DNA of 60,252 bases, from IMG/VR virus record IMGVR_UViG_2562617057_000007; one strand, 5' to 3'. Below are positions 1,874 through 45,595 of the stretch, in pieces. Origin of the DNA: a virus. Its lineage: Duplodnaviria > Heunggongvirae > Uroviricota > Caudoviricetes. Numbering within the stretch: position 1 is the first letter of the stretch; each line of letters opens with the position of its first letter. The notes below the pieces were generated by a model that was not told the DNA's origin, searched no databases, and saw only the letters and a program-made list of their open reading frames with translations. Made by a program: the position numbers and the translations under genes.

Positions 1874-2070
1874 TACTGGCTGCGACACTTTTGAATAAAA
1901 GCGTCGACATTTCGGCGCTCATAACGAACTACTTTTGCACTGAAACGAATTGGTGCCAGGATAGCCCGATGACGATGCTTAATATTCCACTCACATAGCG
2001 TTTTTTGTGTAATACCTAACTTTTGGCATACTTCATCCGGGGTGAGTAAATCGTCGGGTTTCTCGCTCAT
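1870..2070 (-). CDS. AlpA-family excisionase-like DNA-binding protein
   Basis: 66 aa small HTH protein (LTPDEVCQKLGITQKTLCEW), typical size and position next to an integrase; 4 nt overlap with upstream helicase gene. Confidence 0.7.
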   Translation of the reverse strand: MSEKPDDLLTPDEVCQKLGITQKTLCEWNIKHRHRAILAPIRFSAKVVRYERRNVDAFIQKCRSQY

Positions 2071-3461
2071 GCTATACCTCTCTTTTTCATGGCATCGAGC
2101 AGGATGTCCTGCACTGTTCGTTTTGAGTTGCGCCGCTCCATCACCATTTCGTCCATAGTGTCGGCAGCAATAATGTGGTGAATAAATACCGGACGATTGT
2201 GTCCGGCCTGTATCTGCCTGGTGGGGCCGATACGTTCAATAATTTGCTGATACTGCTCCAGGTCCCACCAGTGTGAGAAAAATACCAGTATATTTCCGCC
2301 GTCCTGCATGTTCAGACCGTGGCCCGCGCTGGCTGGGTGTGCAAAGAGAACAGGAATCTTTCCGGAATTCCAGTCACGTAGTGTCTGTGGATCCTGGTCG
2401 AGGTGACGACCGCGAGGAAATGCTTTAAGCAAGCGTTCAAGATCGTGTTTCCAGTGATAAGCAACCAGCACAGGCGCGCCAGCTGCTTCGGTCAGTATGC
2501 TGTCCAGCGCCTGTAGTTTGGTGTCATGCAGTTCTGACCAACTTCCGGTGTCGTCTGTGTATACTGCGCCACTGGCGATTTGAAGACACTTTTGCGTCTT
2601 TGCCGCAGCGTTTGGCGCTTCGATGCTTTCGCCGTTCAGCTCGAGGAACATTTCCTTTTCCATTTCACGATACTGCTGACGTGCCTTCGGCGGCATATCC
2701 ACGCGGACCACGTTATGAACGGGCTCTCTGACATCGAACCAGTCGGCCGCATCCAGCGAGAGGGTCACATCGGCTAACGCTCGCTGTATTTCAGCCTGTG
2801 AGTGAGCAAACGGCTCCAGTTTGGTCCAGCTCTGCCCCGGAAACTGTATCGAGTTGAACCAGCGTGAGGTAAACGCGCCGTAAGTGCGCCCGAGACGTTG
2901 CCCCTGGTCCACAAACCACGATTGTCCCCACAAATCTACCAGGCCGTTCGGTGCTGGCGTACCAGTGAGATTTATCCAGCGCCGGACATACTTATGCGCC
3001 ACTTTGCCCAGCGCCGCCGCGCGCTTACCACCACCTCGCAGCCGGAAGGATTTTAGCCGGGTGCTTTCATCTGGAATGACAGTACCGAACGGCCATTGTT
3101 CTCCCAATTCTTCAACCAGCCAGACAAGGTTATCGTAGTTGATGGTGAACACGCTTGCGTTGCTGTTCGCCAGCGCCGTAGAGCGCGCTTTGGCATTACC
3201 AACAATCGGCTGTACCTCGATATTGCGCAGATGCTCCCATTTCAGCGCTTCATCCGGCCATGTGCTTGCTGCAACGCGTAGCGGCGCGAGGACCAGCGCG
3301 GGGCGTGTTTCTGTTCCAGCCATGAAAAGATCTTCCAGCGTGGTGAGTGTTGCTACGGTTTTACCCATTCCCATCCCCGCCCAGATGTTGCCGCGCAGGG
3401 TTTCGATTTGGTGATTGATGATCAGGTCTTGATACGGGCGGGGGGTGAAAATTTGTCCCAT
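2067..3461 (-). CDS. SNF2-family helicase-like ATPase
   Basis: 464 aa; Walker A GMGKT, DExx box (IPDESTR), LTGTP motif, C-terminal helicase motifs (HPASAGHGLN, QQIIERIGPTRQ). Confidence 0.8.
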   Translation of the reverse strand: MGQIFTPRPYQDLIINHQIETLRGNIWAGMGMGKTVATLTTLEDLFMAGTETRPALVLAPLRVAASTWPDEALKWEHLRNIEVQPIVGNAKARSTALANSNASVFTINYDNLVWLVEELGEQWPFGTVIPDESTRLKSFRLRGGGKRAAALGKVAHKYVRRWINLTGTPAPNGLVDLWGQSWFVDQGQRLGRTYGAFTSRWFNSIQFPGQSWTKLEPFAHSQAEIQRALADVTLSLDAADWFDVREPVHNVVRVDMPPKARQQYREMEKEMFLELNGESIEAPNAAAKTQKCLQIASGAVYTDDTGSWSELHDTKLQALDSILTEAAGAPVLVAYHWKHDLERLLKAFPRGRHLDQDPQTLRDWNSGKIPVLFAHPASAGHGLNMQDGGNILVFFSHWWDLEQYQQIIERIGPTRQIQAGHNRPVFIHHIIAADTMDEMVMERRNSKRTVQDILLDAMKKRGIA

Positions 3462-3504
3462 AGTGTTTTAGCCAGTAGGGCGCGGGTAATCCCGCGCAAT
3501 AATG

Positions 3505-4311
3505 TCAGATTAGATCGGTGTAGTAGGTGAAGTTGCCAAACTGCGGATGTGTCCAGCGCTTGCGGTTACCTTTCGGCGGTGTCGATTCGTTTAACAGCTT
3601 TTGAGCTGCTTGTTCGATCGCTGGGAGCTTAACGAGCAATCCCCGAACACCGGTGTCTGAACGTACCGGTATCCTGGCGAAGCCGATCAATTTCCGGCAT
3701 GTTGAATCAGATAAACCTGTTTTCCATGCTGCTTTGCTGACGGGGACATATTCACCGTTACTGTGTGGTTGTGACTCTCTGACTTGTTGTTTTAAGTCTT
3801 CTACCCAGTTGGTTTCATGTCCCAGAGTTGAAAGCGTTACGTTTTGAACTTGCCGGGGAGCCATCACTTCGACAATTGCTTTCATCGTTGCGGATGCCGT
3901 AGCTTCTGCAACGACACGGGCAAACTGAACGATGTTGTCGTTTACCTGAATTGCAGGAGTTGGCACTGGTAATGATGCCGGACGAGGTTGCTCTAATTCA
4001 ATCTTCATCGCCTGCCACTGTTCGATGAGTGCCAGCCGGCGTTTTGCGTCGTAACCGGTGACGAGAGTCATGGAAAGATTTTCATCAAGCCAAATCTCGT
4101 CGATGACATCACGTCCCTTGTATTCTTTGCGCTTGATAATAAATCCTTTAAAATCATCATAATCCAAATCTGGACTATAGATTTGTAACTGTTCAAGCAT
4201 AGCCAGAATATCCCGTACAACATGCTTATGCTGTTTGCCAGTGACTTCTGCAATTTTCCGGCTGCCCATCATTGGTTGCTTGGTATCGTTTATCAGTGTT
4301 AAAGTATTCAT
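3505..4311 (-). CDS. Rha-family phage regulatory protein (antirepressor-like)
   Basis: N-terminal Rha signature GSRKIAEVTGKQHKHVVRDI; start placed at MNTLTL (ORF track extends to 4353). Confidence 0.7.
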   Translation of the reverse strand: MNTLTLINDTKQPMMGSRKIAEVTGKQHKHVVRDILAMLEQLQIYSPDLDYDDFKGFIIKRKEYKGRDVIDEIWLDENLSMTLVTGYDAKRRLALIEQWQAMKIELEQPRPASLPVPTPAIQVNDNIVQFARVVAEATASATMKAIVEVMAPRQVQNVTLSTLGHETNWVEDLKQQVRESQPHSNGEYVPVSKAAWKTGLSDSTCRKLIGFARIPVRSDTGVRGLLVKLPAIEQAAQKLLNESTPPKGNRKRWTHPQFGNFTYYTDLI

Positions 4312-4370
4312 GCTGTATTCTTCATTCAGTAAAAGATGCGCTGGTAGCTGCAACTATCAGCGCGTTTTGT

Positions 4371-4547
4371 TTATTCATCCCACGGCTTGTTTGCAGCTTC
4401 CCTTGCGGCCTGCTGCGCAAAATAAATCAATTCAAAAGCTAACTGCTCTCCTTTTTCCAGCGAACTGAGAAGTCTTGCTGTTTCCAGCATGTCCGCGATA
4501 TACCCGAAAATATCTGCCTGATGTAACTGCGTGATCTGAATAGCCAT
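4371..4547 (-). CDS. hypothetical small protein, first gene of leftward operon
   Basis: 58 aa from MAIQITQLH; GAGGT RBS 8 nt upstream; longer ORF to 4619 would read through the operator palindromes. Confidence 0.45.
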   Translation of the reverse strand: MAIQITQLHQADIFGYIADMLETARLLSSLEKGEQLAFELIYFAQQAAREAANKPWDE

Positions 4548-4563
4548 AGCGTTAACCTCGATA

Positions 4564-4627
4564 GAACCACGGTGGTTCATTTTTAGTAAACCACCGTGGT
4601 TCATTGATGTCAACACCACCGTGGTGC
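4564..4627. promoter_or_regulatory. three 15 bp operator-like palindromes in divergent promoter region
   Basis: GAACCAC-G-GTGGTTC (4564..4578), AAACCAC-C-GTGGTTC (4588..4602), ACACCAC-C-GTGGTGC (4613..4627), centres about 24 bp apart; overlapping candidate -35 TTGATG (4604..4609) and -10 CATAAT (4626..4631) for the rightward gene. Confidence 0.6.
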
Positions 4628-4661
4628 ATAATTTGGTGATTGAGTTTATGAGGTGTTTGCT

Positions 4662-5006
4662 ATGAGTCGTGAAGATGCACAGATGAAGATCCGTTTACCT
4701 GCGGAGCTGAAAGCGCAGTTAGAAAAAGCAGCTCTGGAAAATAAGCGGTCTATGAATGCGGAAGTACTCCATCGTCTCAAAGAAAGCTTTAATGTTTTAG
4801 TTCACATAACATATAAAGATTCCGAGGGGGAGTTATCAGATAGTAATACCTGGAAGCGTTTTTTGGAATCATCTGAACATGGTGATGAATATAAAAAAGG
4901 CTTTGTTAAGCTTGTCAAAGAAAAATATAAACTTGATAAGGAAAATGAGAGGTTATATAGCTTAATTATAAGCTATTTGAACCCCACAAAGAGTGAAGAT
5001 GATTAG
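4662..5006 (+). CDS. ribbon-helix-helix (Arc/MetJ-like) DNA-binding protein with AT-rich C-terminal extension
   Basis: N-terminus MSREDAQMKIRLPAELKAQLEKAALENKRSMNAEVLHRLKESF is a classic RHH fold signature; GAGGTG RBS 6 nt before ATG 4662. Confidence 0.7.
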   Translation: MSREDAQMKIRLPAELKAQLEKAALENKRSMNAEVLHRLKESFNVLVHITYKDSEGELSDSNTWKRFLESSEHGDEYKKGFVKLVKEKYKLDKENERLYSLIISYLNPTKSEDD

Positions 5007-5136
5007 TTTGTGTTTGTAAGTCTGAATAATATTTCTGCATTTACTGAACGCATATTTTTCTTTGCTGTTTTCTTTAACTCCTCCGCTAATGCGCGGGGGA
5101 CCCGTAATTTAAACTGTAAGTGCTCATCTGATTTTT

Positions 5137-5406
5137 TCACAATATTCCCTCCAGATTTTTGCTATCCAGCACCACTACGGTAAAGCCCAGTTTTCGCAGA
5201 CGTTCATGTTCGCGCAATTGGTCAGGCCGTGGTGGCTTGCCGGGAGATTTACATTCAACGAAAACGATACGACCACCTGGTAGCAGGACAATGCGATCCG
5301 GTACCGAGCGGTGACCGGGAGATACAAACTTAAAGGCCACTCCGCCAGCTTTTTTCACTTCAGCGACGAGGTGCTTTTCGATAAGGCTTTCACGTTCATA
5401 GGCCAT
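5137..5406 (-). CDS. VRR-NUC domain nuclease
   Basis: PD-(D/E)xK-type motif region DRIVLLPGGRIVFVECKSPG; start placed at MAYERE. Confidence 0.75.
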   Translation of the reverse strand: MAYERESLIEKHLVAEVKKAGGVAFKFVSPGHRSVPDRIVLLPGGRIVFVECKSPGKPPRPDQLREHERLRKLGFTVVVLDSKNLEGIL

Positions 5407-5695
5407 CTGAATCCCACTCTTCAAAAAGCACATTCAATTCCAGTTTCTCTGCCAACGCGTTTTCTGCACGTGCGCCAGCAGAGTACTCCCACTCTTTGAG
5501 CATATAAATCGTATCGGCACAGCGAAGCATTGCGAGGCAGATGTCCATATACTGAGCCTGTGTCAAACCATTGGGTAAAGTTGCGGGGTTAAGCACAACA
5601 TATCCCTTGTCCGTTAGCCTCTTTGCTGCGGAATGAAAAGCCGGGCGGTTAAATTGTTCGTAACCGCTCATAGGCCCGGCAACGTAAACGATCAT
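5396..5695 (-). CDS. DUF4406 (nucleoside deoxyribosyltransferase-like) phage protein
   Basis: N-terminus MIVYVAGPMSGYEQFNRPAFHSAAKRL matches DUF4406 pattern. Confidence 0.7.
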   Translation of the reverse strand: MIVYVAGPMSGYEQFNRPAFHSAAKRLTDKGYVVLNPATLPNGLTQAQYMDICLAMLRCADTIYMLKEWEYSAGARAENALAEKLELNVLFEEWDSDGL

Positions 5696-5959: not shown

Positions 5960-6724
5960 TTAACGGGGTAACTCTGGTGGAATATATCTGCCGATGCGGT
6001 CTTCTATGGTCGGCAGAATGCACATGCTGTCGTTAAAGCGGTCATGCAGTTTGTAGACCAGTTTCGAATCCATTTTTTCGAGAGCAGGCATTAACTGCGC
6101 TCGCCAGATTTCATTAATACGTCGGAAGTTATGACAGACGGCGCGGAGATTGTTGATGAACATTTCCTTCTCTGCGTCATTGATTGCTGTCTGCACTTTC
6201 TGAATACGCTTTGTGCTGCCGTTCCGGTAAAAGTCCTTCTGCGCAGCGACAGCCTCATCCACGGATGGATAACACCCTACGTAAACGCTTTTCTCTCCGT
6301 TCCATGCGTAGGCTCTGTACGGGTTGTATTTGCTCTGGTGATGGTAAACCATCTTCGGCAGGCACTCCCTGTGCGGCGCCAGTATCGTGGAGGACTGCTG
6401 GTGCAGTTTGCGTTCGCATTCGATGAAGTATCGGCGTATCTGGCGACCTTTTTCGTTACGCTCGACCATCGCCAGTTCTTTGGCTGTATCGAGGGTGAGG
6501 TGGTAGTCCTTACAAAGAACATTTTTACGCTTTCCAGTTTTGGAAAACGTTACGATATAATCATGATTTTCAACGAATTTATAGTCTGCAATTCGTGATG
6601 TAATCCATGCTGCAAACACTTTCCCTACCCCAAGGAATGCGTGCAGATCGCGAGCATTGCAGAGCAGGGTGATTTCGTTGGCGATAGCGCCGTTGAAAAC
6701 GGGGATGAGTTGAGCTGCCATCAC
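5960..6724 (-). CDS. AntA-domain antirepressor-like protein
   Basis: AntA signature DYHLTLDTAKELAMVERNEKGRQIRRYFIECE in N-terminal half. Confidence 0.8.
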   Translation of the reverse strand: MMAAQLIPVFNGAIANEITLLCNARDLHAFLGVGKVFAAWITSRIADYKFVENHDYIVTFSKTGKRKNVLCKDYHLTLDTAKELAMVERNEKGRQIRRYFIECERKLHQQSSTILAPHRECLPKMVYHHQSKYNPYRAYAWNGEKSVYVGCYPSVDEAVAAQKDFYRNGSTKRIQKVQTAINDAEKEMFINNLRAVCHNFRRINEIWRAQLMPALEKMDSKLVYKLHDRFNDSMCILPTIEDRIGRYIPPELPR

Positions 6725-6884
6725 AGTTACCTCTAACGGTGAAATTCACCGCCACCACTGAGTTGCAAATCTCATATGGGTGGCGAACTGACGAGGTTTG
6801 CAATACCGGCGTTAGAGGAAACCGGCGCGCCGAAGCGCCCCCGCCAGCCCGCCATAATGCGAACGTGGCAAAGCTTGCGACAAT

Positions 6885-6904
6885 AAAAAAGACGCTGGCG
6901 CGTC
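6885..6904 (-). terminator. candidate rho-independent terminator
   Basis: minus-strand hairpin GACGC-GCCA-GCGTC followed by TTTTTTATT; lies downstream of the PolA fragment. Confidence 0.4.
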
Positions 6905-7202
6905 TGGTGTCGCCCCTAACAATTCCGGGTTGCAAATCCCGATCTCCATTTGGGAGATTCGGTGAGCATAAACCGGAAGGGGGTGATGAGTCAATATCGG
7001 GGTAGCAGGGCGGTCGGGTACTTGAACACCGCAGCAAGTCGGCCCGTATCCTTAGCCTTTCGGCTGTTTTTCGGTATACGCGCTACCCGACCATATCTGA
7101 AAATGGACATAAAAAATCCGCATGACTGACGGGCGCGGTTTCCGCTTGCTGTGGTGTGTTCAGCACCATGAAGCGGAATATACCTATTGGTCATCGCGGA
7201 TG

Positions 7203-8135
7203 TCAATCTTTCCGGTATCTGTAAGATTCGAATCCTCCGGCGTTTAGTGGAATGCTCGTGGCCCAGTCAGGAACGGTTGCCAGTAACTGGCTGACATGTT
7301 CTGCTGAGTAATCGGGTGAGTCAGGGGCCTCACTTATAATTTCATCGTGTACCGTCAGCACAATGCTGTAACCGGCATCTTCGATAAGCGGCATGTTTCC
7401 GGCCAGAACGTCGCGGGCGGCCGCCTGGGTGACGTTCTCCACCAGCTTTCCGCCGTAGGTTTTGAGTCGTTGCCATTTACGCGAATAAGAGTTAACACCC
7501 ATATAGGTGATATTCCCTTTTTCGATAACCGGAGACGGGTAGCATACAGCGCGTCCGGATGGTAGCTGTATGCGCAGCCACGCGCCATCGCGGCGGATTT
7601 TAAGATAACCGCAATACAATGTTTTTTGCGGTGTGGCGATTGCAGTGCGGACGGTGCGCTCCAGTTCGTACCAGAAATCGCAGGTCGCCGGGTGCGCCCT
7701 GCGCCAGAGACGTTTAAGTGAGTCGCAGGCGATAAATACCCGTTCAGAAAGGCCGTAGGTTGACTTACGTTTAACCGATTCGTAGTACCAGCTTTTCGCC
7801 TCGCGGATAACATCGCGGGGAATGTTTGGCAGTGCGGCGTTCGCCAGCTCGTCGAGATCGAGACTGTAAACCAGTGCAAAAGTGATGAAGGCCGACACAC
7901 CACCACCGTACCCGCAGTTGTGAACGATTAAATGTCCTGAGTCGGTTTTAATCGTGAATCTGTTTCGAGGCCCCGCATGTGCAATGTCGTAAACATCGCT
8001 CCAGCTCGTCGATACGTTTTTGCAGGTCTGCGATTTTTCTTCTGTTGCGGTTATTGTCTGCTTTGGAGACGAACTGGATATTACCCGGTTCGTAGCCTTT
8101 GTTATTGTCGATGCGATCCATTTCCAACTACCCAA
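7203..8135 (-). pseudogene. C-terminal fragment of a family A (PolA-type) DNA polymerase
   Basis: Contains Pol I motif B-like GYGGGVSAF, NxxQG-AAD-like VTQAAARDV and motif C LTVHDEI; N-terminal exonuclease and most of the polymerase domain absent; first about 40 codons of the ORF lack homology. Confidence 0.6.
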
Positions 8136-8300: not shown

Positions 8301-8793
8301 ATGGCTGATAACAAACCATGGGGAGCTACGCCCGATGAGTGGTTCCACTTCGATCTGGTGTTGGGGATGACAGACAGGCTTTTACCTGTGGTGTCCAATC
8401 CCTGTGCAGAACTGTCGCCTAATAGCAAGCTGTCTCATAATTTCGGCAAAACTCCCTGTCGCTACAATGGCCAACGTAAGGTCGTTGGTATAATTCGCTG
8501 CGTATACAGACCTGTCGTTGCAGGTCAAAGGTAATATTGGCGCATCAATGAAGGCTCAACTTGGCATCAGGATTGAACGAGAATTGTACAGTGAAGATGT
8601 TACTTACTGTGATTCAGCAGTTCAGTTGATGTGGACACTCTTTCAGGCAGGTGTTCTGGCCGAACGAAGAGCTACCAGCGTTACGCTTCCTGCGCTGAAG
8701 GCAAAGCCGGATAGCTTCTACGATGCGGGTTATAACGAAGGTATTCAGGACTGTCGTAAACATCTGACGGCATCAGGCATCAAGGTAAGATAA
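8301..8793 (+). pseudogene. hypothetical phage protein split into two overlapping frames (8301..8534 and 8518..8793)
   Basis: two consecutive ORFs in different frames overlapping by 17 nt, suggesting a frameshifted gene; function not recognised. Confidence 0.35.
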
Positions 8794-8860
8794 AAAATAG
8801 TTGTGGAATTCCAAAAAGCCGATTAGCCTGATATCCGTTGAAAACAGTTCATCACGAAGA

Positions 8861-8884
8861 GGCTTCCGCAAGGGGGCCTTTTTT
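8861..8884 (+). terminator. rho-independent terminator
   Basis: GGCTTCC-GCAA-GGGGGCC hairpin (GNRA-type loop, two G-U pairs) followed by TTTTTT. Confidence 0.55.
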
Positions 8885-9221
8885 ATTGCCCCATTCTGGG
8901 GAAAAGTTAATAAAACAGGGCTTTCGCTGCGAAAAAACGCTATGCAGTTTTTGCCCTTTTTTATGCACCTTTTATTCACTCGAATTTCGTCATTCTGGAC
9001 CACTTAAGTTGATTAAATAGGCCTTTCATCGCAAATCTATTGCGAGCGGGGATCGTGTGGTTCCTATAATGTATATTATGTTAAATCATGTTGACTGTTA
9101 ACTTACTTCATGAACCAAGATGGTTCGCATAAAATCATAGGGTTAAGTCCCCCCTTAATCTTTCGTTTGCTGGCATTATGTTTAAGAGCTATTTTCTTCA
9201 TATCCATGAACTTCTCTGAGG

Positions 9222-10592
9222 ATGTCTCAGATGTATATACTCGACCAGTTGAGTGTTGCTCCAAACCGGCGGATTTGGACATTGGTTGACGCCACTACTA
9301 ACTTACCGCTTCTGTTTCCACTTCTCTTTCTCATTGATCGCTTGTCTTTACGTTCCGAATCCACGCAGTCATCTACGCTACAGGCTCTAAAATTTTTTTA
9401 TGAGTACTGGTATCAAAAACATGATGTTACTTTCTGTTTGAGCTTCCATCTGTCTGGATACAATCCTTCGATTGCAATTAGTGAGATTGAAGCATTTCTT
9501 CATTATCTTGAATCAGGAAAGCTTGTGTTGCCTACACTCGGACGCGCTGTAATTAGCAAGCACAATACAAATATTAATCATGTACATGCAGTCTGCCGTT
9601 TTATCAACTATCTGATCAATACTTACGTTTCTCCTCGTTATATGGATGGTACCCCAAAAGAACTTTCTCGTTACGCTTTACAATTATCCAGGCGTTTGTC
9701 GGCCTATCGTTCGGATTTTCGACCCAGCAAGCAAAAGCATTCAAACAAACATTTTAATAGCCTTACAGCAGACATGGTCAGGAAATTTTATGAGATTATT
9801 AGACCAGAATCGTCTTCCAAGCCAAATCCTATTAATCCCTTCCCTACTGGAGAAATTCAATTCAGAAATTATTTAATCTGTCGCCTTCTTTTGAATTATG
9901 GTTTGCGTGTAAGTGAATTGCTTTTGTTAGAAAAAAACTCAATTAAACCTAACATCAAGGGCGTACAGTTCAGTATCATAGTGACGTCTGTAGATGATGA
10001 TGTTAGAGATCCAAGAAAGAGATTACCGTCATTAAAAAACTCATGGGCGCATCGAGTTTTAGCGTTAGACATAAATGATTACAACCACTTAAAAACATAC
10101 ATTGATAAAATAAGGAAAAAAACCTCTCATAGTTTCATATTCACTTCAACTAAAAATAACACTCCACCACTATCGTATCACTCTATATATGATATTTTCT
10201 CAAAAATTGATTGTGCTTTCAAAAAAGAGTACCCGCAATTCAGTGATGAAGAAAGCATTGATTCTGTAGTTAGCATAACCCCACACGTAGCTCGCCATAC
10301 ATGGGCTTATTTGATCTTAAAGAGAGTCTATACTGATAAATATCAGTCTGTTATGAGAAGTTGCCAGCTTGCAGGAGTTGATTTCGCTATTGCAGGTCTG
10401 ATGAGTGAAGCCAAAGATGAGCTCCGTCTTTTAGGTGGATGGAGCCATAATAGCCGCATGCCAGAACTCTATGCCCGCCGTTTTCTTTCTGAGCGAGCTA
10501 ATTTTTCCAATCTCACGCGTATTGCTGCTGATGCCTCAGAAGATGATTTTTTTTCATCTATACATCAAGCGTTTAGGGAAACGACCAAGTGA
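9222..10592 (+). CDS. tyrosine recombinase-like protein 1
   Basis: 456 aa; GLRVSE (box I Arg), HVARHTWA, GGWSH, ELYARRF (catalytic Tyr). Confidence 0.8.
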   Translation: MSQMYILDQLSVAPNRRIWTLVDATTNLPLLFPLLFLIDRLSLRSESTQSSTLQALKFFYEYWYQKHDVTFCLSFHLSGYNPSIAISEIEAFLHYLESGKLVLPTLGRAVISKHNTNINHVHAVCRFINYLINTYVSPRYMDGTPKELSRYALQLSRRLSAYRSDFRPSKQKHSNKHFNSLTADMVRKFYEIIRPESSSKPNPINPFPTGEIQFRNYLICRLLLNYGLRVSELLLLEKNSIKPNIKGVQFSIIVTSVDDDVRDPRKRLPSLKNSWAHRVLALDINDYNHLKTYIDKIRKKTSHSFIFTSTKNNTPPLSYHSIYDIFSKIDCAFKKEYPQFSDEESIDSVVSITPHVARHTWAYLILKRVYTDKYQSVMRSCQLAGVDFAIAGLMSEAKDELRLLGGWSHNSRMPELYARRFLSERANFSNLTRIAADASEDDFFSSIHQAFRETTK

Positions 10593-15166: not shown

Positions 15167-15482
15167 ATTTTACACCTGAAGACGTTTTTAGTGCTTCGAT
15201 AAGGTTACTTCGCTCTTCCTCTGTCATTCGGGAGATGAGTAATGCAAGTTCTGCTGTTGTCTGATCATCACAAAAAAAATAGTTCAACGGTACGTTTAAC
15301 TCTGCCGCCATTCGTCGAAGCGTATCAATATCGGGGACATGGCGTCCTTTCTCATAATGATTCATACGACTGCTAGCCGATGCGGGATCAAAGCCAACAA
15401 GGAGACCCAGAGAGCGCTGTGATAAACCCGCCCTGCATCTCGCTTCCTTAAGTCGTTCTGGTATTGGATTTTTTTCAGACAC
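15150..15482 (-). CDS. HTH XRE-family DNA-binding protein
   Basis: IPERLKEARCRAGLSQRSLGLLVGFDPASASSRMNHYEKGRHVPDIDTLRRMAAELNVPLNYFF is a canonical Cro/C1-type HTH. Confidence 0.7.
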   Translation of the reverse strand: MSEKNPIPERLKEARCRAGLSQRSLGLLVGFDPASASSRMNHYEKGRHVPDIDTLRRMAAELNVPLNYFFCDDQTTAELALLISRMTEEERSNLIEALKTSSGVKYADKK

Positions 15483-15869
15483 TGATTCATCTTCATTGGC
15501 CTCGAATGCTTAGATTGTCTAAGTATCTGTCATTGTTGTATACTTAGCAATCCTAAGTTAACAGCCTTGTTTTGTCATATGAATAGTCGAGTAACCAACC
15601 CTGAGTCGTACATATTTTCTGCAATCATCTTAATTGGCAAAGATAACTTCACCAGTAACGAAGTAGCAAAAATTCTTATCGAGCGATTTTCACTTCCGAA
15701 AAATTATTTAAAGGCAAAAGCTTTTGCTTATAACCAAATTCAATCCCTGGTTAGAAAAGGATTATTAAACAAAGTAAGAAAAACGTAACCGTCTCATTTA
15801 AACCGTCTTTCGCCTCCCTTTCCTGTTTCCGATACTAATGTCCATTTTCGCAGTAAAGGGACATTTAAG

Positions 15870-16511
15870 ATGAATGCACGAAAAGCGGTACTGGCAGACA
15901 ATCCGGAATTGATCCTGCGTGTGCTACAACTGAGATTTGACGAGTCACTGTCGTACCCGCGCATTTCTGCGCAGACCGGTATCAGCAAAACCGCCATTTT
16001 TTCTCTGGTGAGGCGATTTCACCAGGTATTCACTGACTGGCCTCTTTCCGGGGAATATTCCTGCGTGCAACTGGCCCGGGCTTTGTTCCCGGGGCGATAC
16101 CCTTCAGCCCCGACAGTAACTCAGACTGTGAAAACAGAGAAAAACCGCCGGAACCGATTTTCACCGGAGTTTAAATGGAGACTTGTTCAGCAAACTCTTT
16201 TACCCGGTGCCTGTGTCGCACAAATAGCTCGTGAGAACGGAATCAACGATAACCTGCTCTTTAACTGGCGGCATCTCTGGCGTAACGGCGGCCTGCAGCC
16301 GACCGGCGAACATGAAACATCGCTACTTCCCGTGACGTTAACTCCGGAGCCGGATAATAAAATCCCGGCACCAGTGCAGATACCTGAACAGATGCCCGAC
16401 AGTCTGTGCTGTGAGCTGGTTCTGCCGGCCGGAACTCTCAGGCTGAAAGGTGAACTGACACCGGCGTTATTACAGACACTTATCCGCGAAATGAAAGGGA
16501 GCAGCCACTGA
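15870..16511 (+). CDS. IS66-family accessory protein OrfA (copy 1)
   Basis: 213 aa, identical to 20728..21369. Confidence 0.8.
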   Translation: MNARKAVLADNPELILRVLQLRFDESLSYPRISAQTGISKTAIFSLVRRFHQVFTDWPLSGEYSCVQLARALFPGRYPSAPTVTQTVKTEKNRRNRFSPEFKWRLVQQTLLPGACVAQIARENGINDNLLFNWRHLWRNGGLQPTGEHETSLLPVTLTPEPDNKIPAPVQIPEQMPDSLCCELVLPAGTLRLKGELTPALLQTLIREMKGSSH

Positions 16512-21369: not shown

Positions 21370-21716
21370 TGATATCTCTCCCTGCCGGTTCGCGTATCTG
21401 GCTGGTTGCCGGTATCACCGACATGCGAAATGGTTTTAACGGCCTGGCATCAAAAGTTCAGAACGTCCTGAAGGATGACCCGTTCTCCGGGCATCTGTTC
21501 ATCTTCCGCGGACGCCGGGGTGACCAGATAAAAGTGTTGTGGGCTGACAGTGACGGACTGTGCCTCTTCACCAAACGCCTGGAGCGGGGCCGCTTCGTCT
21601 GGCCGGTTACCCGTGACGGCAAGGTGCACCTTACTCCGGCTCAGTTATCTATGCTTCTTGAAGGTATCAACTGGAAGCACCCGAAACGAACGGAACGCGC
21701 TGGCATCCGCATATAA
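21369..21716 (+). CDS. IS66-family OrfB (copy 2)
   Basis: 115 aa. Confidence 0.8.
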   Translation: MISLPAGSRIWLVAGITDMRNGFNGLASKVQNVLKDDPFSGHLFIFRGRRGDQIKVLWADSDGLCLFTKRLERGRFVWPVTRDGKVHLTPAQLSMLLEGINWKHPKRTERAGIRI

Positions 21717-21735
21717 CCCGTTGTAAAGTGAGGAT

Positions 21736-23307
21736 ATGGACACCTCACTTGCTCATGAGAATGCCCGCCTGCGGGCACTGTTGCAGACGCAACAGGACAC
21801 CATCCGCCAGATGGCGAAATACAACCGCCTGCTCTCACAGCGGGTGGCGGCTTATGCTTCCGAAATCAACCGGCTGAAGGCGCTGGTTGCGAAACTGCAG
21901 CGCATGCAGTTCGGTAAAAGCTCAGAAAAACTTCGCGCTAAAACCGAACGACAGATACAGGAAGCACAGGAGCGAATCAGCGCACTTCAGGAAGAAATGG
22001 CGGAAACGCTGGGTGAGCAATATGACCCGGTACTGCCATCCGCCCTGCGCCAGTCTTCAGCCCGTAAACCGTTACCGACCTCACTTCCCCGTGAAACCCG
22101 GGTCATCCGGCCGGAAGAGGAATGCTGTCCGGCCTGTGGTGGTGACCTCAGTCCTCTGGGGTGTGATGTGTCAGAGCAACTGGAGCTTATCAGCAGCGCT
22201 TTTAAGGTTATCGAAACACAACGTCCGAAACTGGCCTGTTGCCGGTGCGACCATATCGTGCAGGCACCAGTACCTTCAAAACCCATTGCACGCAGTTATG
22301 CCGGAGCGGGGCTTCTGGCTCATATCGTCACCGGGAAGTATGCAGACCATCTGCCGTTATACCGCCAGTCAGAAATATACCGTCGTCAGGGCGTGGAACT
22401 GAGCCGCGCCACGCTGGGGCGCTGGACCGGTGCCGTTGCTGAACTGCTGGAGCCGCTGTATGACGTGCTGCGCCAGTATGTACTGATGCCCGGTAAAGTC
22501 CATGCGGATGATATCCCCGTTCCGGTCCAGGAGCCGGGCAGTGGTAAAACAAGAACTGCCCGGCTGTGGGTCTATGTCCGTGATGACCGTAACGCCGGTT
22601 CACAGATGCCCCCGGCGGTCTGGTTCGCGTACAGCCCGGACCGGAAAGGTATCCATCCACAAAATCACCTGGCCGGTTACAGCGGTGTGCTTCAGGCCGA
22701 TGCTTACGGTGGTTACCGGGTGTTATACGAATCCGGCAGAATAACGGAAGCCGCGTGTATGGCTCATGCCCGGAGAAAAATCCACGATGTGCATGCAAGA
22801 GTGCCCACCGACATCACCACGGAAGCCCTGCAGCGTATCGGTGAACTGTATGCCATCGAGGCAGAGGTCCGGGGCTGTTCAGCAGAACAGCGTCTGGCGG
22901 CAAGAAAAGCCAGAGCCGCGCCACTGATGCAGTCACTGTATGACTGGATACAGCAACAGATGAAAACACTGTCGCGTCACTCGGATACGGCAAAAGCGTT
23001 CGCATACCTGCTGAAACAGTGGGATGCACTGAACGTGTACTGCAGTAATGGCTGGGTGGAAATCGACAACAACATTGCAGAGAACGCCTTACGGGGAGTG
23101 GCCGTAGGCCGGAAAAACTGGCTCTTCGCGGGTTCTGACAGCGGTGGTGAACATGCTGCGGTGTTGTACTCGCTGATCGGCACATGCCGTCTGAACAATG
23201 TGGAGCCAGAAAAGTGGCTGCGTTACGTCATTGAACATATCCAGGACTGGCCGGCAAACCGGGTACGCGATCTGTTGCCCTGGAAAGTTGATCTGAGCTC
23301 TCAGTAA
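21736..23307 (+). CDS. IS66-family transposase OrfC (copy 2)
   Basis: 523 aa. Confidence 0.85.
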
Positions 23308-34025: not shown

Positions 34026-35645
34026 ATGCCGTTACCATTCCCCTTCGATTTTAAACATCCTGATTACCAGATGGTTTTTGAATGGCGGATGGAACGCCTA
34101 CAGCGCATTCGCCAGAATCCTGAAATATTGCCTGCACTAAAACAGTTTTACCGTACCAATCCGGCTCAGTTCATCATCGACTGGGGCATGACAACGGACC
34201 CGCGTAATATTGATTATGGCCTGCCGGTGACCATTCCGTTTTTACTCTTCCCTAAGCAGGAGGAGTGGATCCACTGGATTATGGAACGCTGGAGCAATCG
34301 GGAGAATGGTATTACCGATAAATCCCGTGAAATGGGGCTCAGTTGGACCGCGATCGGACTGGCCTGCTCGCTTTGTCTCTTCAACAAAGAAATGGTTATC
34401 GGTTTCGGCTCCCGTAAAGAGGAATACGTCGACAGCACCGGTGACCCGAAAGCATTGTTCTGGAAGGCGCGCAAGTTCGTGGAAACACTACCTGTAGAGT
34501 TTCGCGGTTCGTGGAGCGAGAAGAAGCACGCGCCATATATGCGTGTTGAGTTTCCTGAAACTGGCGCGGTTATCAAAGGTGAGGCTGGCGATAATATCGG
34601 TCGTGGTGACCGTACGACCCTTTATCTTGTGGATGAGGCTGCTTTTCTCCAGCGACCATTACTTATTGATGCCGCGCTTTCCCAGACAACCCGATGTCGT
34701 ATCGATCTCTCATCGGTTAACGGCATGAACAACCCCTTCGCACAGAAGCGGCACAGTGGAAAAATCCCGGTGTTTACGTTTCACTGGCGTAGCGATCCGC
34801 GTAAAGACGATGAGTGGTATCACAAGGAGTGCGAGAAAATTGATAACCCAGTCATCGTTGCCCAGGAACTGGATCTTAATTACCAGGCATCAGCAGAAGG
34901 CATCCTGATCCCCTCAGAATGGGTACAGGCTGCGGTTGATGCACATATCAGACTGGGCATTCAGCCCGGCGGCCAACGGCTTGGTGCAATGGATGTCGCC
35001 GACGAAGGGCGGGATAAAAACGCCTGTTCGCTCCGTTATGGCATCCTGCTGAATGACGTACAGGAGTGGTCAGGTAAGGGGAGTGACATCTATGACTCTG
35101 TGGTTAAGGTTTTTGGTCTGTGCGATGACTTTGGTGCCGATGAGTTTCGCTTTGATGAGGACGGATTGGGTGCTGGCGTTCGTGGTGATGCGCGCGCTAT
35201 CAACGAACTGCGTGAAGCGGAGGGCATCTGTCAAATCACCGCCACTCCATTCCGGGGCAGCGGGAGCGTGTTTCATCCTGAAAATGAAGCTGTTCCCGGT
35301 GATAATGGTAAACCGGCTCGTCTGAATAAGGACTTTTTTGTCAATGCCAAAGCCCAGGGGTGGTGGCATCTTCGCAAATTATTCCGCAATACATTTCGTG
35401 CACTACAGGGTATGGAGTATGACCCGGATGAGATTATTTCCATCAGCAGCACAATGGAAAATAAAGACCGGTTGTTGATGGAGCTGTCACAACCTACCTG
35501 GTCAAAAAATGCCACCGGAAAAATTCTTGTGGATAAGCAACCTGACGGAACGAAATCTCCAAACCTGGCTGATTCTGTGATGATTGCTTATGCCCCGATG
35601 GAAATGCCCATCGTAATTTCTGATGACTTTATGGAGTGGATCTGA
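34026..35645 (+). CDS. terminase large subunit
   Basis: 539 aa; ATPase N-terminal domain and nuclease C-terminal domain layout, followed by portal. Confidence 0.85.
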
Positions 35646-43055: not shown

Positions 43056-44520
43056 AGATGTACAGATAAATCCCGGTGTGCTGGCTGTGGCGGGTAATGC
43101 CGTCGATCTTAACGGCCTGCTGTTGACCAGTAATCCGTTACTTCCGGTCGGCACTGTGGTTCCGTTTTCCTCTCCGGATGATGTGGCCGCGTATTTTGGT
43201 GCATTATCCGATGAGTACGCACGCGCTCAGCTTTATTTCCAGGGCTTCAAAAATGCCACCAGGACGCCGGGGCAATTGTTGTTTTCCCGTTTCAGTCCTG
43301 CCCCATCGGCGGCCTGGTTACGTAGCGGTTCGTTTAAGGGCGCGACTGTTGAACAGCTACAAAAACTTTCCGGCACGCTGATGCTGAGTATTAACGGGAA
43401 AAGCGTCAGCATTGAAGTGAATTTTAACGGTGTCGCCAGCTTCGCCGCTGCTGCAACGGCACTACAGACAGCGCTGACCGCAGCAGTGGCTACAGTGGTA
43501 TTCGATACCACACAGAATGCTTTTGTCATTACTGTCGCCGGGGCGAAACCCGGGAGTACCACGATAACGTTCGGCAGTGGATCGGCAGCAGAACTCCTGA
43601 AGATGACCAGTAACACCGGTGCGGTGATATCCCGGGGCGCGCCTGTATCTGATGTCCCTGACACAATGGCAGCCATTAAGGCCGCTTCCCAGCAATGGGC
43701 GGGTTTTTCCACGGTATCTGAGGTCACTGACGAGCAACACCTGGCGTTTTCTGCATGGGCAAACGGGCAGGGCAAGCGTTACTTTTATGTGGCATGGACA
43801 ACCAGCGGCAACGCCAGAGTAAAAGGCAGTACTGAACACATCGCTTACCAGATAATTGCTGTCAATAACTACAGCTCTGTTGTACCTGTTTTCGCGACTG
43901 ATGGTAACCGGGCTGCAGCGGTACTGGGGTATGCAGCGTGCCTTGATTTTGTCCGACCAGAGGGGCGTGTATCATTCAAGTTCCGCGAGTATGAGGGGCT
44001 GGCCGCTGATGTTACCAGTGGCAGCGATTATGATGCGCTGATCGCCGCAGGTTACAATTTCTACGGAAAATATGCGGAAAACAGTGTGGTGGAAGATTAC
44101 TGGGCGGATGGCACTATTACCGGTGATTTTAAATGGCTGGACAGTTTCTGCGGGCAAATCTGGCTGAATGCCAGTTTGCAGGGGGCGGTGATCGCGTTAT
44201 TCAAGTCAAACCAGACGATCCCCTACAACAATGAAGGGCGGGCGCTGGTTGCAGCGTCAATGAGTGACGTTATCCAGCAGTACAAACGCTGGGGAGGGAT
44301 CCGTGAAGGGGTGACACTGACGGAGGCGCAGAAGAAACAGATTAACAATGTTGTGGGGGCAGATGTTTCTTCAACGTTGTTTGCCACCGGCTATTACCTG
44401 TATATCGGCGATATGCTTCCCTCTTTGCGGGCAACCCGTAGCAGTCCGTCCTGTACGCTCTGGTACTGTGACGGCGGTAGTATCCAGAAACTTGTTATTG
44501 CATCCACGGAGGTCCAGTAA
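43036..44520 (+). CDS. contractile tail sheath protein
   Basis: 494 aa followed by 148 aa tube-size gene, frameshifted chaperone and tape measure: canonical myovirus order. Confidence 0.75.
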
Positions 44521-44967
44521 ATGTCGGGTAACAACAACACCATCACTGCGGCGGATGCCATTATCACGCTGACAGTGAATAATCTGTATCCCTCCGGCGT
44601 ACGACTTCAGGGATTTGCAACAGATAACGTTTATGGCACCGATCCACTGGTACTGGCGGAAACTGCCCGCGGTATTGACGGTAAACTGTCCGCGGGATTT
44701 GTGTACAGCAACATTATCCAGACGTTTCATATCATGCCGGATTCCCCCAGCCGGGATATTTTTGATACCTGGTCAACCACATCCCGGGCCAGTCGGGCTG
44801 TATTCCGTTGTAACGCTGTCGTCCTGCTTCCGGCGATTGGCCGTAAATATACCTGCGTGAATGGCGTACTCAAACAATGGAAAGCGCTGCCTGATGCAGC
44901 TCGTACGTTGCAGCCAGGGCAGGCGGTTATTGAGTGGGAAACCATTACTCCGGAGGTTTTTAACTGA
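44521..44967 (+). CDS. tail tube protein
   Basis: 148 aa directly after sheath. Confidence 0.7.
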   Translation: MSGNNNTITAADAIITLTVNNLYPSGVRLQGFATDNVYGTDPLVLAETARGIDGKLSAGFVYSNIIQTFHIMPDSPSRDIFDTWSTTSRASRAVFRCNAVVLLPAIGRKYTCVNGVLKQWKALPDAARTLQPGQAVIEWETITPEVFN

Positions 44968-45371
44968 TGGCCCGTAAAGAGAAATTTATCACTATTGAAG
45001 GTCAGGGACGGGATAAGGGCAAGGTATTTCATCTTACCGAAATGTCTGCCTCACAGGCGGAATGGTGGGCGATGCGTGCCATTATGGCAATGGGGCGTGG
45101 TGGCGTGGAGTTACCGGATGATGTTCGTAGTCTGGGGATGGCTGCGCTTGCCCTTGAAGGGCTGAAAGCATTATCGAAAATTCCGCCTGATGAGGCGCGT
45201 CCGTTGATGGATGAAATGATGGACTGTGTGCAGTTTGTTCCCGATCCGAAAAAACGCAGCATCCGGAGACCGCTTGTTGAAGAGGATATTGAAGAAATCA
45301 TTACCCGTCTTAATCTGCGTGCGGAGGTCTTTAAGCTGCATGTGGATTTTTTCGCTACCGTCGTCAGCTAG
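44967..45371 (+). CDS. tail assembly chaperone (short form)
   Basis: 134 aa between tube and tape measure; contains slippery heptamer T-TTT-TTC near 3' end. Confidence 0.65.
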   Translation: MARKEKFITIEGQGRDKGKVFHLTEMSASQAEWWAMRAIMAMGRGGVELPDDVRSLGMAALALEGLKALSKIPPDEARPLMDEMMDCVQFVPDPKKRSIRRPLVEEDIEEIITRLNLRAEVFKLHVDFFATVVS

Positions 45372-45595
45372 ATATCCCCCCGCGTTATCTCGACCCCGAC
45401 AGACCGTTCGGGGTGGTGGATTACGTTAATGTTCCCCGTACCATTGCGACCGTTATCTCCTCCGGTAAGGCTTCAAAAGCTGAACTGGATTCTGTCCTTG
45501 GTGTGCAGGACTTATGGGATCTGCTGGAAATAATTCATGTGGATGCCCATAACGAACAGGTGATACAGGAGAACAGAAATGGCGCAGGTACTTGA
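45347..45595 (+). other. programmed -1 frameshift site and extension of tail chaperone
   Basis: slippery T TTT TTC at 45347..45353 in correct register; -1 frame stays open to 45595. Confidence 0.55.

Follow-up and report, generated by a model that had tools for sequence, protein, structure and literature searches.

Three related palindromes lie in the 114-bp gap (4548-4661) between two divergent genes of an E. coli prophage, and the question raised by this locus is which protein reads them and which genes they control. The prophage is myovirus-like, sits between yfhL and yfhH, and was analysed as a 60,252-bp stretch of DNA (the whole of which we call the window) that is identical to the chromosomes of strains VL40 and O121 201805972. 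The gap is bounded by a leftward ORF of 58 aa (start codon 4547-4545) and by a rightward gene that begins at 4662. An initial annotation had likened the palindromes to the operators of P22 immI or lambda OR and had suggested that an Arc-like RHH protein controls an antirepressor operon through them. Having weighed the evidence set out below, we consider it very probable that they are Mnt-type operators of an immI-like secondary immunity switch in this E. coli myovirus-like prophage.

4564-4578, no strand assigned: O1, GAACCACGGTGGTTC, a perfect palindromic 15-mer centred at 4571.
4589-4601, no strand assigned: O2, AACCACCGTGGTT, a perfect palindromic 13-mer centred at 4595.
4614-4626, no strand assigned: O3, CACCACCGTGGTG, a perfect palindromic 13-mer centred at 4620.
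4371-4547, minus strand: 58-aa ORF, first gene of the leftward operon, predicted by AF2 to form a two-helix hairpin.
3505-4311, minus strand: Rha-family, antirepressor-type gene (Pfam Phage_pRha, 2.5e-10; PHROG anti-repressor families).
2067-3461, minus strand: SNF2 helicase gene, next after the Rha gene.
4662-5006, plus strand: gene for a 114-aa, Mnt-like RHH putative repressor (Pfam Arc, 1.7e-10).
5003-5140, minus strand: gene for a second, Arc-size RHH protein of 45 aa (Pfam Arc, 1.4e-9) with the beta strand Q-F-K-L-R.

Direct inspection of the sequence and a repeat finder agreed with the earlier description of three related palindromes spaced about 24 bp apart: all share the core CCAC-N-GTGG, and the O1-O2 and O2-O3 distances are 24 and 25 bp (centre to centre, and also start to start). 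The length of 15 bp that had been given for all three holds in full for O1, whereas O2 and O3 are 13-mers, the next outer pair of O2 being a mismatched A/C. The sequence CCACNGTGG occurs four times in the window, against 0.85 occurrences expected, and three of the four fall within 58 bp inside the gap, O1-O3 together spanning 63 bp (4564-4626). The fourth match, at 51163, lies in an unrelated region without flanking similarity. Exact matches to the 13-mer AACCACNGTGGTT in the window are limited to O1 and O2.

Pfam assignments likewise agreed with the proposed gene arrangement, in which a small ORF and a Rha-family gene run leftward and an Arc-like RHH gene runs rightward. The Rha gene is the presumed regulated target of the operators, and its product would act as an antirepressor, a name that the Rha family carries by annotation only. 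The 58-aa ORF ahead of it is conserved in Enterobacterales, where it precedes Rha or KilA-N genes; its product gave no Pfam or PHROG match, and no match was obtained when species-representative genomes were scanned with it. We considered and rejected the idea that it is a cryptic RHH protein, given an hhalign probability of 0.8%, no PDB sequence match, and the two-helix hairpin of its AF2 model. On the other side of the gap, the 45-aa RHH gene converges on the 114-aa gene with a 4-nt overlap and is the last gene of an upstream leftward AntA operon; the genes beyond it, all leftward, encode VRR-NUC, DUF4406, a PerC/ANR-like protein and AntA.

The 114-aa protein carries an N-terminal RHH with the beta strand Q7-M-K9-I-R11 (QMKIR), and it aligns with the Arc and Mnt PDB chains over the DNA-reading beta strand, such that Q7, K9 and R11 fall opposite Arc Q9, N11 and R13. 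These Arc positions reportedly contact DNA in the Arc-operator structure of Raumann et al. 1994, and genetic work on Mnt from the Sauer laboratory is said to have identified the aligned beta-strand positions as DNA-contacting. The family N terminus, MSREDPQ.K.R.P, resembles that of Mnt (ARDDPHFNFRMP) and that of Arc. The remaining ~70 C-terminal residues are predicted to be helical, in an AF2 model that is poor (mean pLDDT 52), and no similarity between this domain and the tetramerisation domain of Mnt was detectable by sequence. The resemblance to P22 extends to the DNA: in the P22 record, the annotated mnt operator (ATAGGTCCACGGTGGACCTGTAT) directly follows Pant, and its CCACGGTGG core (GGTCCACGGTGGACC) is the 9-bp core of O1-O3. 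The ACCACSGTGGT consensus of the family described below differs from the P22 mnt operator mainly at positions +/-5. The likeness to P22 immI proposed at the outset is thus borne out both by the shared operator core and by the alignment of the 114-aa protein with Arc and Mnt.

4604-4632, plus strand: predicted promoter P_R, -35 TTGATG at 4604-4609, 17-nt spacer, -10 CATAAT at 4627-4632 (from a consensus scan).
4585-4613, minus strand: predicted promoter P_L, -35 TTGACA at 4613-4608, 17-nt spacer, -10 TTTACT at 4590-4585 (read from the sequence).

We infer the positions of both promoters from consensus and conservation. They would stand back to back with their -35 hexamers overlapping by 2 bp, within TTGATGTCAA at 4604-4613, between O2 and O3; the general form of this element, TTGnTGTCAA, reads as two overlapping -35 hexamers. 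The -10 of P_L is a weak match, and the promoter scan did not call P_L because this hexamer has no A at position 2. O2 fills the 17-bp spacer of P_L and touches its -10, while O1 covers ~+1 to +15 of the predicted transcript, just downstream of the -10. O3 occupies the spacer of P_R, the predicted promoter of the 114-aa RHH gene, and is therefore the predicted autoregulatory site; its centre lies 42 bp before the ATG, and a rightward Shine-Dalgarno sequence, GAGG, is found at 4650-4653. The expectation that the palindromes overlap candidate -35 and -10 elements thus stood, O2 and O3 filling the predicted spacers. The overlap with the leftward RBS that had been described was not found: O1 stops 4 nt short of that RBS (CCTC, 4556-4559).

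Conservation picks out the same elements. Six diverged enterobacterial loci vary in their leaders and spacers but are invariant at the three sites and at AGTAAA, TTGnTGTCAA and GCATA, and both P_R hexamers are kept in relatives. The O1-O2 spacing, by comparison, is 24 bp in the window and 31 bp in close relatives, and ranges over 17-31 bp across the family, which argues against fixed helical phasing and leaves any cooperativity undefined. No consistently weakest site among O1-O3 emerged from the family comparison.

If the 114-aa protein reads these sites, then site and beta strand should be found together elsewhere, and this is the pattern that we observed. ACCACSGTGGT sites are also present upstream of distant RHH relatives with 58-67% N-terminal identity and unrelated C termini, one of which comes from a GC-rich host, and RHH relatives with other beta strands have other repeats upstream. 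We also ran the search in reverse, scanning viral contigs and bacterial genomes by DNA alone for ACCACSGTGGT-N(8-38)-ACCACSGTGGT. Among the viral contigs, this recovered 78 loci, 69 of which had an RHH gene start within 250 bp; over 1.6 Mb, only 5 RHH matches were farther than 500 bp from the sites. Of the bacterial genome loci, 23 of 120 likewise had an RHH gene start within 250 bp, and most of the remaining matches came from high-G+C genomes. Five multi-site genome arrays were rejected as operators, being tandem coding repeats in genomes of 60-73% G+C and hence false positives. These arrays (L122, L128, L143, L216 and L220, from hosts that include Rhizobium, Sphingomonas and Acidimicrobiaceae) hold 5-7 ACCACSGTGGT matches each, as tandem repeats with periods of 15-43 bp, apparently in repetitive coding sequence.

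Pooling the viral and genome scans gave 103 non-redundant RHH loci. The beta strand is Q-x-K-x-R in 102 of them (QFNLR in the other), and 90 carry three sites no more than 260 bp from the start codon, with a spacing mode of 25-26 bp. The order O1, O2, ccATTGcTGTCAAc, O3, CATAAT/CATCAT recurs across the family, and the TTGnTGTCAA and CATAAT/CATCAT elements are conserved from Enterobacterales to Pseudomonas, Burkholderia and Rhizobium. Named genome records with the layout belong to Burkholderia, Cupriavidus, Rhizobium, Stenotrophomonas and Stutzerimonas, and it is also present in Enterobacterales contigs. The window conforms to the group in its QMKIR strand (Q-[MLF]-K-[ILV]-R), in a start codon ~60 bp or less from the sites, and in three sites of which O2 and O3 flank TTGnTGTCAA. 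The mRNAs of Pseudomonas-type loci may be leaderless, since the centre of O3 there precedes the ATG by only 19-20 bp.

The divergent neighbours of these triple-operator loci are mostly antirepressor-type genes: the 150 divergent ORFs taken from ~75 loci include matches to Phage_pRha (18), ANT/KilAC (16), Arc (11), AntA (8), ORF6N (8), Bro-N (6), KilA-N (6) and P22_AR_N (4). Of the complete loci, 34 pair a long RHH gene with a short one and 20 have a single RHH gene. In most two-RHH loci, the short gene comes first in the divergent operon, as arc does in P22; in the enterobacterial subgroup that includes the window, the short gene is convergent behind the long one and the operon begins with the 58-aa gene. 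Many non-enteric members (L069 11375-12100, L031, L056, L073, L103 and others) have a divergent 50-60-aa RHH gene followed by Rha/KilAC, which reproduces the full P22 order of mnt, operators, arc and ant.

Closely related prophages of E. coli offer an independent view of the pairing, since the operators and both RHH genes have been replaced in some of them. We compared the window with the sister prophages of STEC435, CFIAFB20190157 and SI-NP020 and with those on ten IMG/VR contigs.

4551-5136, no strand assigned: exchangeable specificity module, consisting of the operators and both RHH genes.
L005 2478-3064 (also L006, L007 and L010-L019), in E. coli sister prophages: the type-2 cassette.

Identity to the STEC435 sister prophage falls to 0.3-0.6 across 4551-5136 and is 0.85-1.0 in most flanking comparison intervals on both sides; in the sister prophages, the neighbouring 58-aa and VRR-NUC genes are kept at ~90-100% identity while 4551-5136 is replaced. 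The type-2 module retains the -35 core TTGAnGTCAACA and, at the same three positions as O1-O3, carries the repeats CTCATTGTGAG, CTCACAATGAG and TGTGAGG (CTCAttgTGAG-type). Its RHH proteins, of 109 and 58 aa, are paralogues with an identical 14-residue N terminus, and both begin MSKRDDPQLRVRIP, as against QMKIRLP (114 aa) and QFKLRVP (45 aa) in the window proteins. Because the operators and both RHH genes are replaced together, we regard them as one exchangeable specificity cassette. A reverse scan with the CTCAYWRTGAG pair recovered only the same E. coli prophage lineage and unrelated palindromes, and so gave no independent support for the second specificity. In E. coli LH50-c (L004 2497-2705), whose long RHH gene carries a truncated-pseudogene annotation, O2 and O3 are intact and O1 (AACCACTGCGGTC) is degenerate.

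These observations support the proposal that the Arc-like RHH protein would act on the sites and control the Rha operon: operators and RHH genes are exchanged together, a scan by DNA alone recovers the RHH subfamily, promoter and operator bases are conserved in diverged relatives, and the divergent genes are enriched for antirepressor-type domains.

The strongest alternative makes the 45-aa RHH protein, or mixed oligomers of the two RHH proteins, the main reader of the sites; the 45-aa protein could then be the main regulator, or a dominant-negative partner without the C-terminal domain. This reading overlaps our preferred one, and we think it unlikely, if worth keeping in mind. The 45-aa protein shares the Q-x-K-x-R pattern; the two type-2 paralogues are identical over their 14 N-terminal residues; and the short paralogue has Q-x-K-x-R in 22 of the 34 complete two-RHH loci. 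It has a different beta strand in the other 12, however, and is therefore dispensable for site recognition, whereas the long RHH protein is the constant partner of the sites. Where a complete locus has one RHH gene, the lone product is a Q-x-K-x-R protein of 73-177 aa in 18 of 20 cases.

Far less probable is a role for the palindromes as RNA hairpins, with O1 and its T run serving as an intrinsic terminator or O1 and O2 as a leader structure. A terminator scan does list O1 on the plus strand (6-pair stem, 3-nt loop, ATTTTTAG tail), and the long inverted repeat formed by O1 and O2 produced weak, spurious matches to microRNA precursors, which were the only Rfam models, all sub-threshold, returned for the intergenic region. 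Yet no upstream gene is transcribed rightward into O1, the T run accompanies one of the three copies and is absent in relatives, and the palindromes are conserved in sequence rather than by compensatory change. The sites moreover co-vary with the protein beta strand and match a known protein-binding site.

We give equally little credence to the idea that the sites are operators of host LexA or of the primary repressor, the product of a LexA/CI-like gene that lies ~11 kb from them (~15385-16014); the antirepressor would then answer to the SOS response, as in the Gifsy prophages. LexA control of some prophage antirepressor genes is reported by Lemire et al. 2011 (PMC3121763). In the window, however, there is no CCACNGTGG site near the CI-like gene and no LexA box (CTGT-N8-ACAG) near the operator region, and across prophages the sites travel with RHH genes and not with the CI gene. 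The least probable reading is a centromere- or origin-like array for a ParG/omega-type RHH protein in partition or replication: RHH partition proteins do bind repeat arrays, and two PHROG families matching the RHH domain are labelled 'partition protein ATPase', but no ParA-type gene is nearby, the element is an integrated prophage, and the sites fall precisely between conserved promoter hexamers, with antirepressor genes as neighbours.

We therefore return to an Mnt-type switch, and propose that it would operate as follows. Judged by sequence, the 114-aa Mnt-like RHH protein would be made from P_R, bind O1-O3 and repress from them. The analogy of Mnt on Omnt makes it most likely that a dimer of dimers, two RHH dimers in all, would occupy each palindrome. 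Occupancy of O2, in the P_L spacer and at its -10, would block leftward transcription, and occupancy of O1, at the P_L start site, would add to the block; in a lysogen, O1 and O2 together would keep the 58-aa ORF and Rha off, and probably SNF2 too. With O3 occupied in the P_R spacer, the 114-aa repressor would limit its own synthesis. Upon infection or induction, P_L would fire until repressor accumulates, and the 45-aa paralogue from the AntA operon, which has the same Q-x-K-x-R pattern and probably reads the same sites, may contribute.

Two further regulatory elements, both RNA, may accompany the switch.

4297-4378, plus strand: candidate sar-like antisense RNA, with an extended -10, TGtTAAAGT, at 4297-4305 within the first Rha codons.
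6776-7092, minus strand: three Rfam matches above the gathering score, namely sRNA-Xcc1 (7004-7092), isrK (6885-6958) and C4 antisense RNA (6776-6859).

The candidate antisense RNA would contain a 15-pair hairpin (4333-4368; dG -23.5 kcal/mol, z -4.4) with a T run after it, and its extended -10 is kept across Rha variants although the Rha N termini differ. No Rfam model, sar included, matched it. We would speculate that such an RNA runs across the Rha ribosome-binding site, placed as sar is in P22. The second cluster lies just upstream of the AntA antirepressor gene (5960-6724) and is preceded by a strong sigma-70-like promoter (TTGACA, 18 nt, TATATT, ~7205-7170 on the minus strand). These Rfam matches indicate that the Mnt-type module has a tandem partner, an antirepressor module of the P1 type under RNA control.

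The prophage that carries the switch has accumulated insertions.

Near 600-1300, IS1; ~21700-22700, ISEc11; ~34200-35350, IS600; ~44300-45530, IS2: IS elements, some in tail genes.
~48580-50410: ipaH, an IpaH type III effector gene, at the right end of the prophage.

Since four IS elements interrupt it, in part within tail genes, and it carries ipaH at the right end, the prophage is probably defective, and with several insertions present the switch may no longer matter in its host. In the window itself, then, the operators are a regulatory detail of a decayed prophage of enteroinvasive/Shiga-toxigenic-type E. coli. In the annotation, the family-A DNA polymerase gene is split into two pseudogene fragments ~785 bp apart, at ~7203-7997 and 8782-10038 on the minus strand.

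The significance of the locus lies in the family. P22 immI is the textbook case of beta-sheet DNA recognition and antirepressor control, and it has been treated largely as a P22-like peculiarity. Our survey indicates that an Mnt-type core and a Q-x-K-x-R repressor are used in phages of many Proteobacteria, in one fixed layout of three sites and two promoters. We found no description in the literature of the Q-x-K-x-R subfamily, of its operator or of the triple-site layout; a paper on Pseudomonas phage Gp53 was considered as a precedent and set aside, since it concerns an AmrZ-like RHH protein with other motifs. A phage-database search with 3500-5500 matched only the VRR-NUC part, and on that evidence no characterised phage carries the module. 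Prophages that are otherwise almost identical can exchange the module whole. The two cassettes supply a candidate recognition pair for studies of RHH specificity on the same scaffold (K9 with ACCACSGTGGT, R9 with CTCAywrTGAG), a way to predict prophage cross-immunity at the antirepressor level, and a compact natural part for synthetic circuits.

A broader reading is possible, though we would put the balance somewhat against it: the loci may represent a widespread, undescribed switch in which a long and a short RHH protein with the same DNA-reading residues compete or co-assemble on three like operators in back-to-back promoters, the short one setting the timing or antagonising the long one, and the whole module being swapped as a specificity cassette. 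If this is true, two repressors would act on one operator set, as against two repressors on two operators in P22.

Among known systems, the structural relatives are the Arc-operator complex (PDB 1PAR), AmrZ and CopG. The N-terminal RHH aligns with them, and a sheet of two strands, in which every other residue faces the DNA, is to be expected here; they differ in operator sequence and in residues, and the Q-x-K-x-R subfamily has no structure of its own. The immI region of P1/P7, in which C4 antisense RNA controls icd/ant, is likewise an antirepressor-control module, and such a module adjoins the locus upstream; it is RNA-based, whereas O1-O3 are protein/operator-based.

The proposed likeness to lambda OR holds as an analogy only. 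Three related sites lie between and overlap divergent promoters, one of which would make the repressor, so that autoregulation and repression of the target could be graded, but RHH proteins, which read DNA with a beta sheet, take the place here of the helix-turn-helix proteins CI and Cro. Lambda pits its repressor against Cro at three sites that the two prefer in opposite order, and no gene for a Cro-like competitor of a different fold was found at this locus. We found no evidence here for differential affinity or for pairwise cooperativity of the lambda OR kind, and with no consistently weakest site and a variable O1-O2 spacing, the sequences do not support ordered, cooperative occupancy as in lambda. 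Lambda OR is, in addition, a primary immunity region, whereas O1-O3 belong to a secondary one.

P22 immI is the closest parallel. In both systems, an RHH maintenance repressor gene is divergent from an antirepressor-type operon, the palindromic operator has the identical CCACGGTGG core, and a second, Arc-size RHH protein is encoded nearby. O1 follows closely on the predicted -10 of P_L, which is where Omnt stands at Pant, and here too there may be an antisense RNA at the start of the antirepressor-type gene. P22 has one Omnt and one unrelated Oarc, in contrast to the three Mnt-type sites here, and its promoter spacer holds Oarc where ours holds the Mnt-type O2. Pant and Pmnt, on opposite strands, overlap over nearly their full length, while P_L and P_R would stand back to back with overlapping -35s. 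Despite the common operator core, the beta-strand residues are H/N/R in Mnt and Q/K/R here, so the exact contacts are not transferable from Mnt; operator position +/-5 is A/T here and T/A in P22; and the C-terminal domain is longer than that of Mnt and not detectably related to it. The first operon gene encodes Arc in P22 and a 58-aa helical protein without RHH signal here, where the short RHH gene, unlike in P22, sits behind the long one in convergent orientation and encodes a protein with the same recognition pattern. The regulated gene would encode a Rha-family protein, against Ant in P22, and the phage is a myovirus-like E. coli prophage, P22 being of the podovirus type. What the two have in common is the operator core and the logic; what is new is the three like sites, the back-to-back promoters, the reading residues, the first gene, the Rha-type target and the type of phage.
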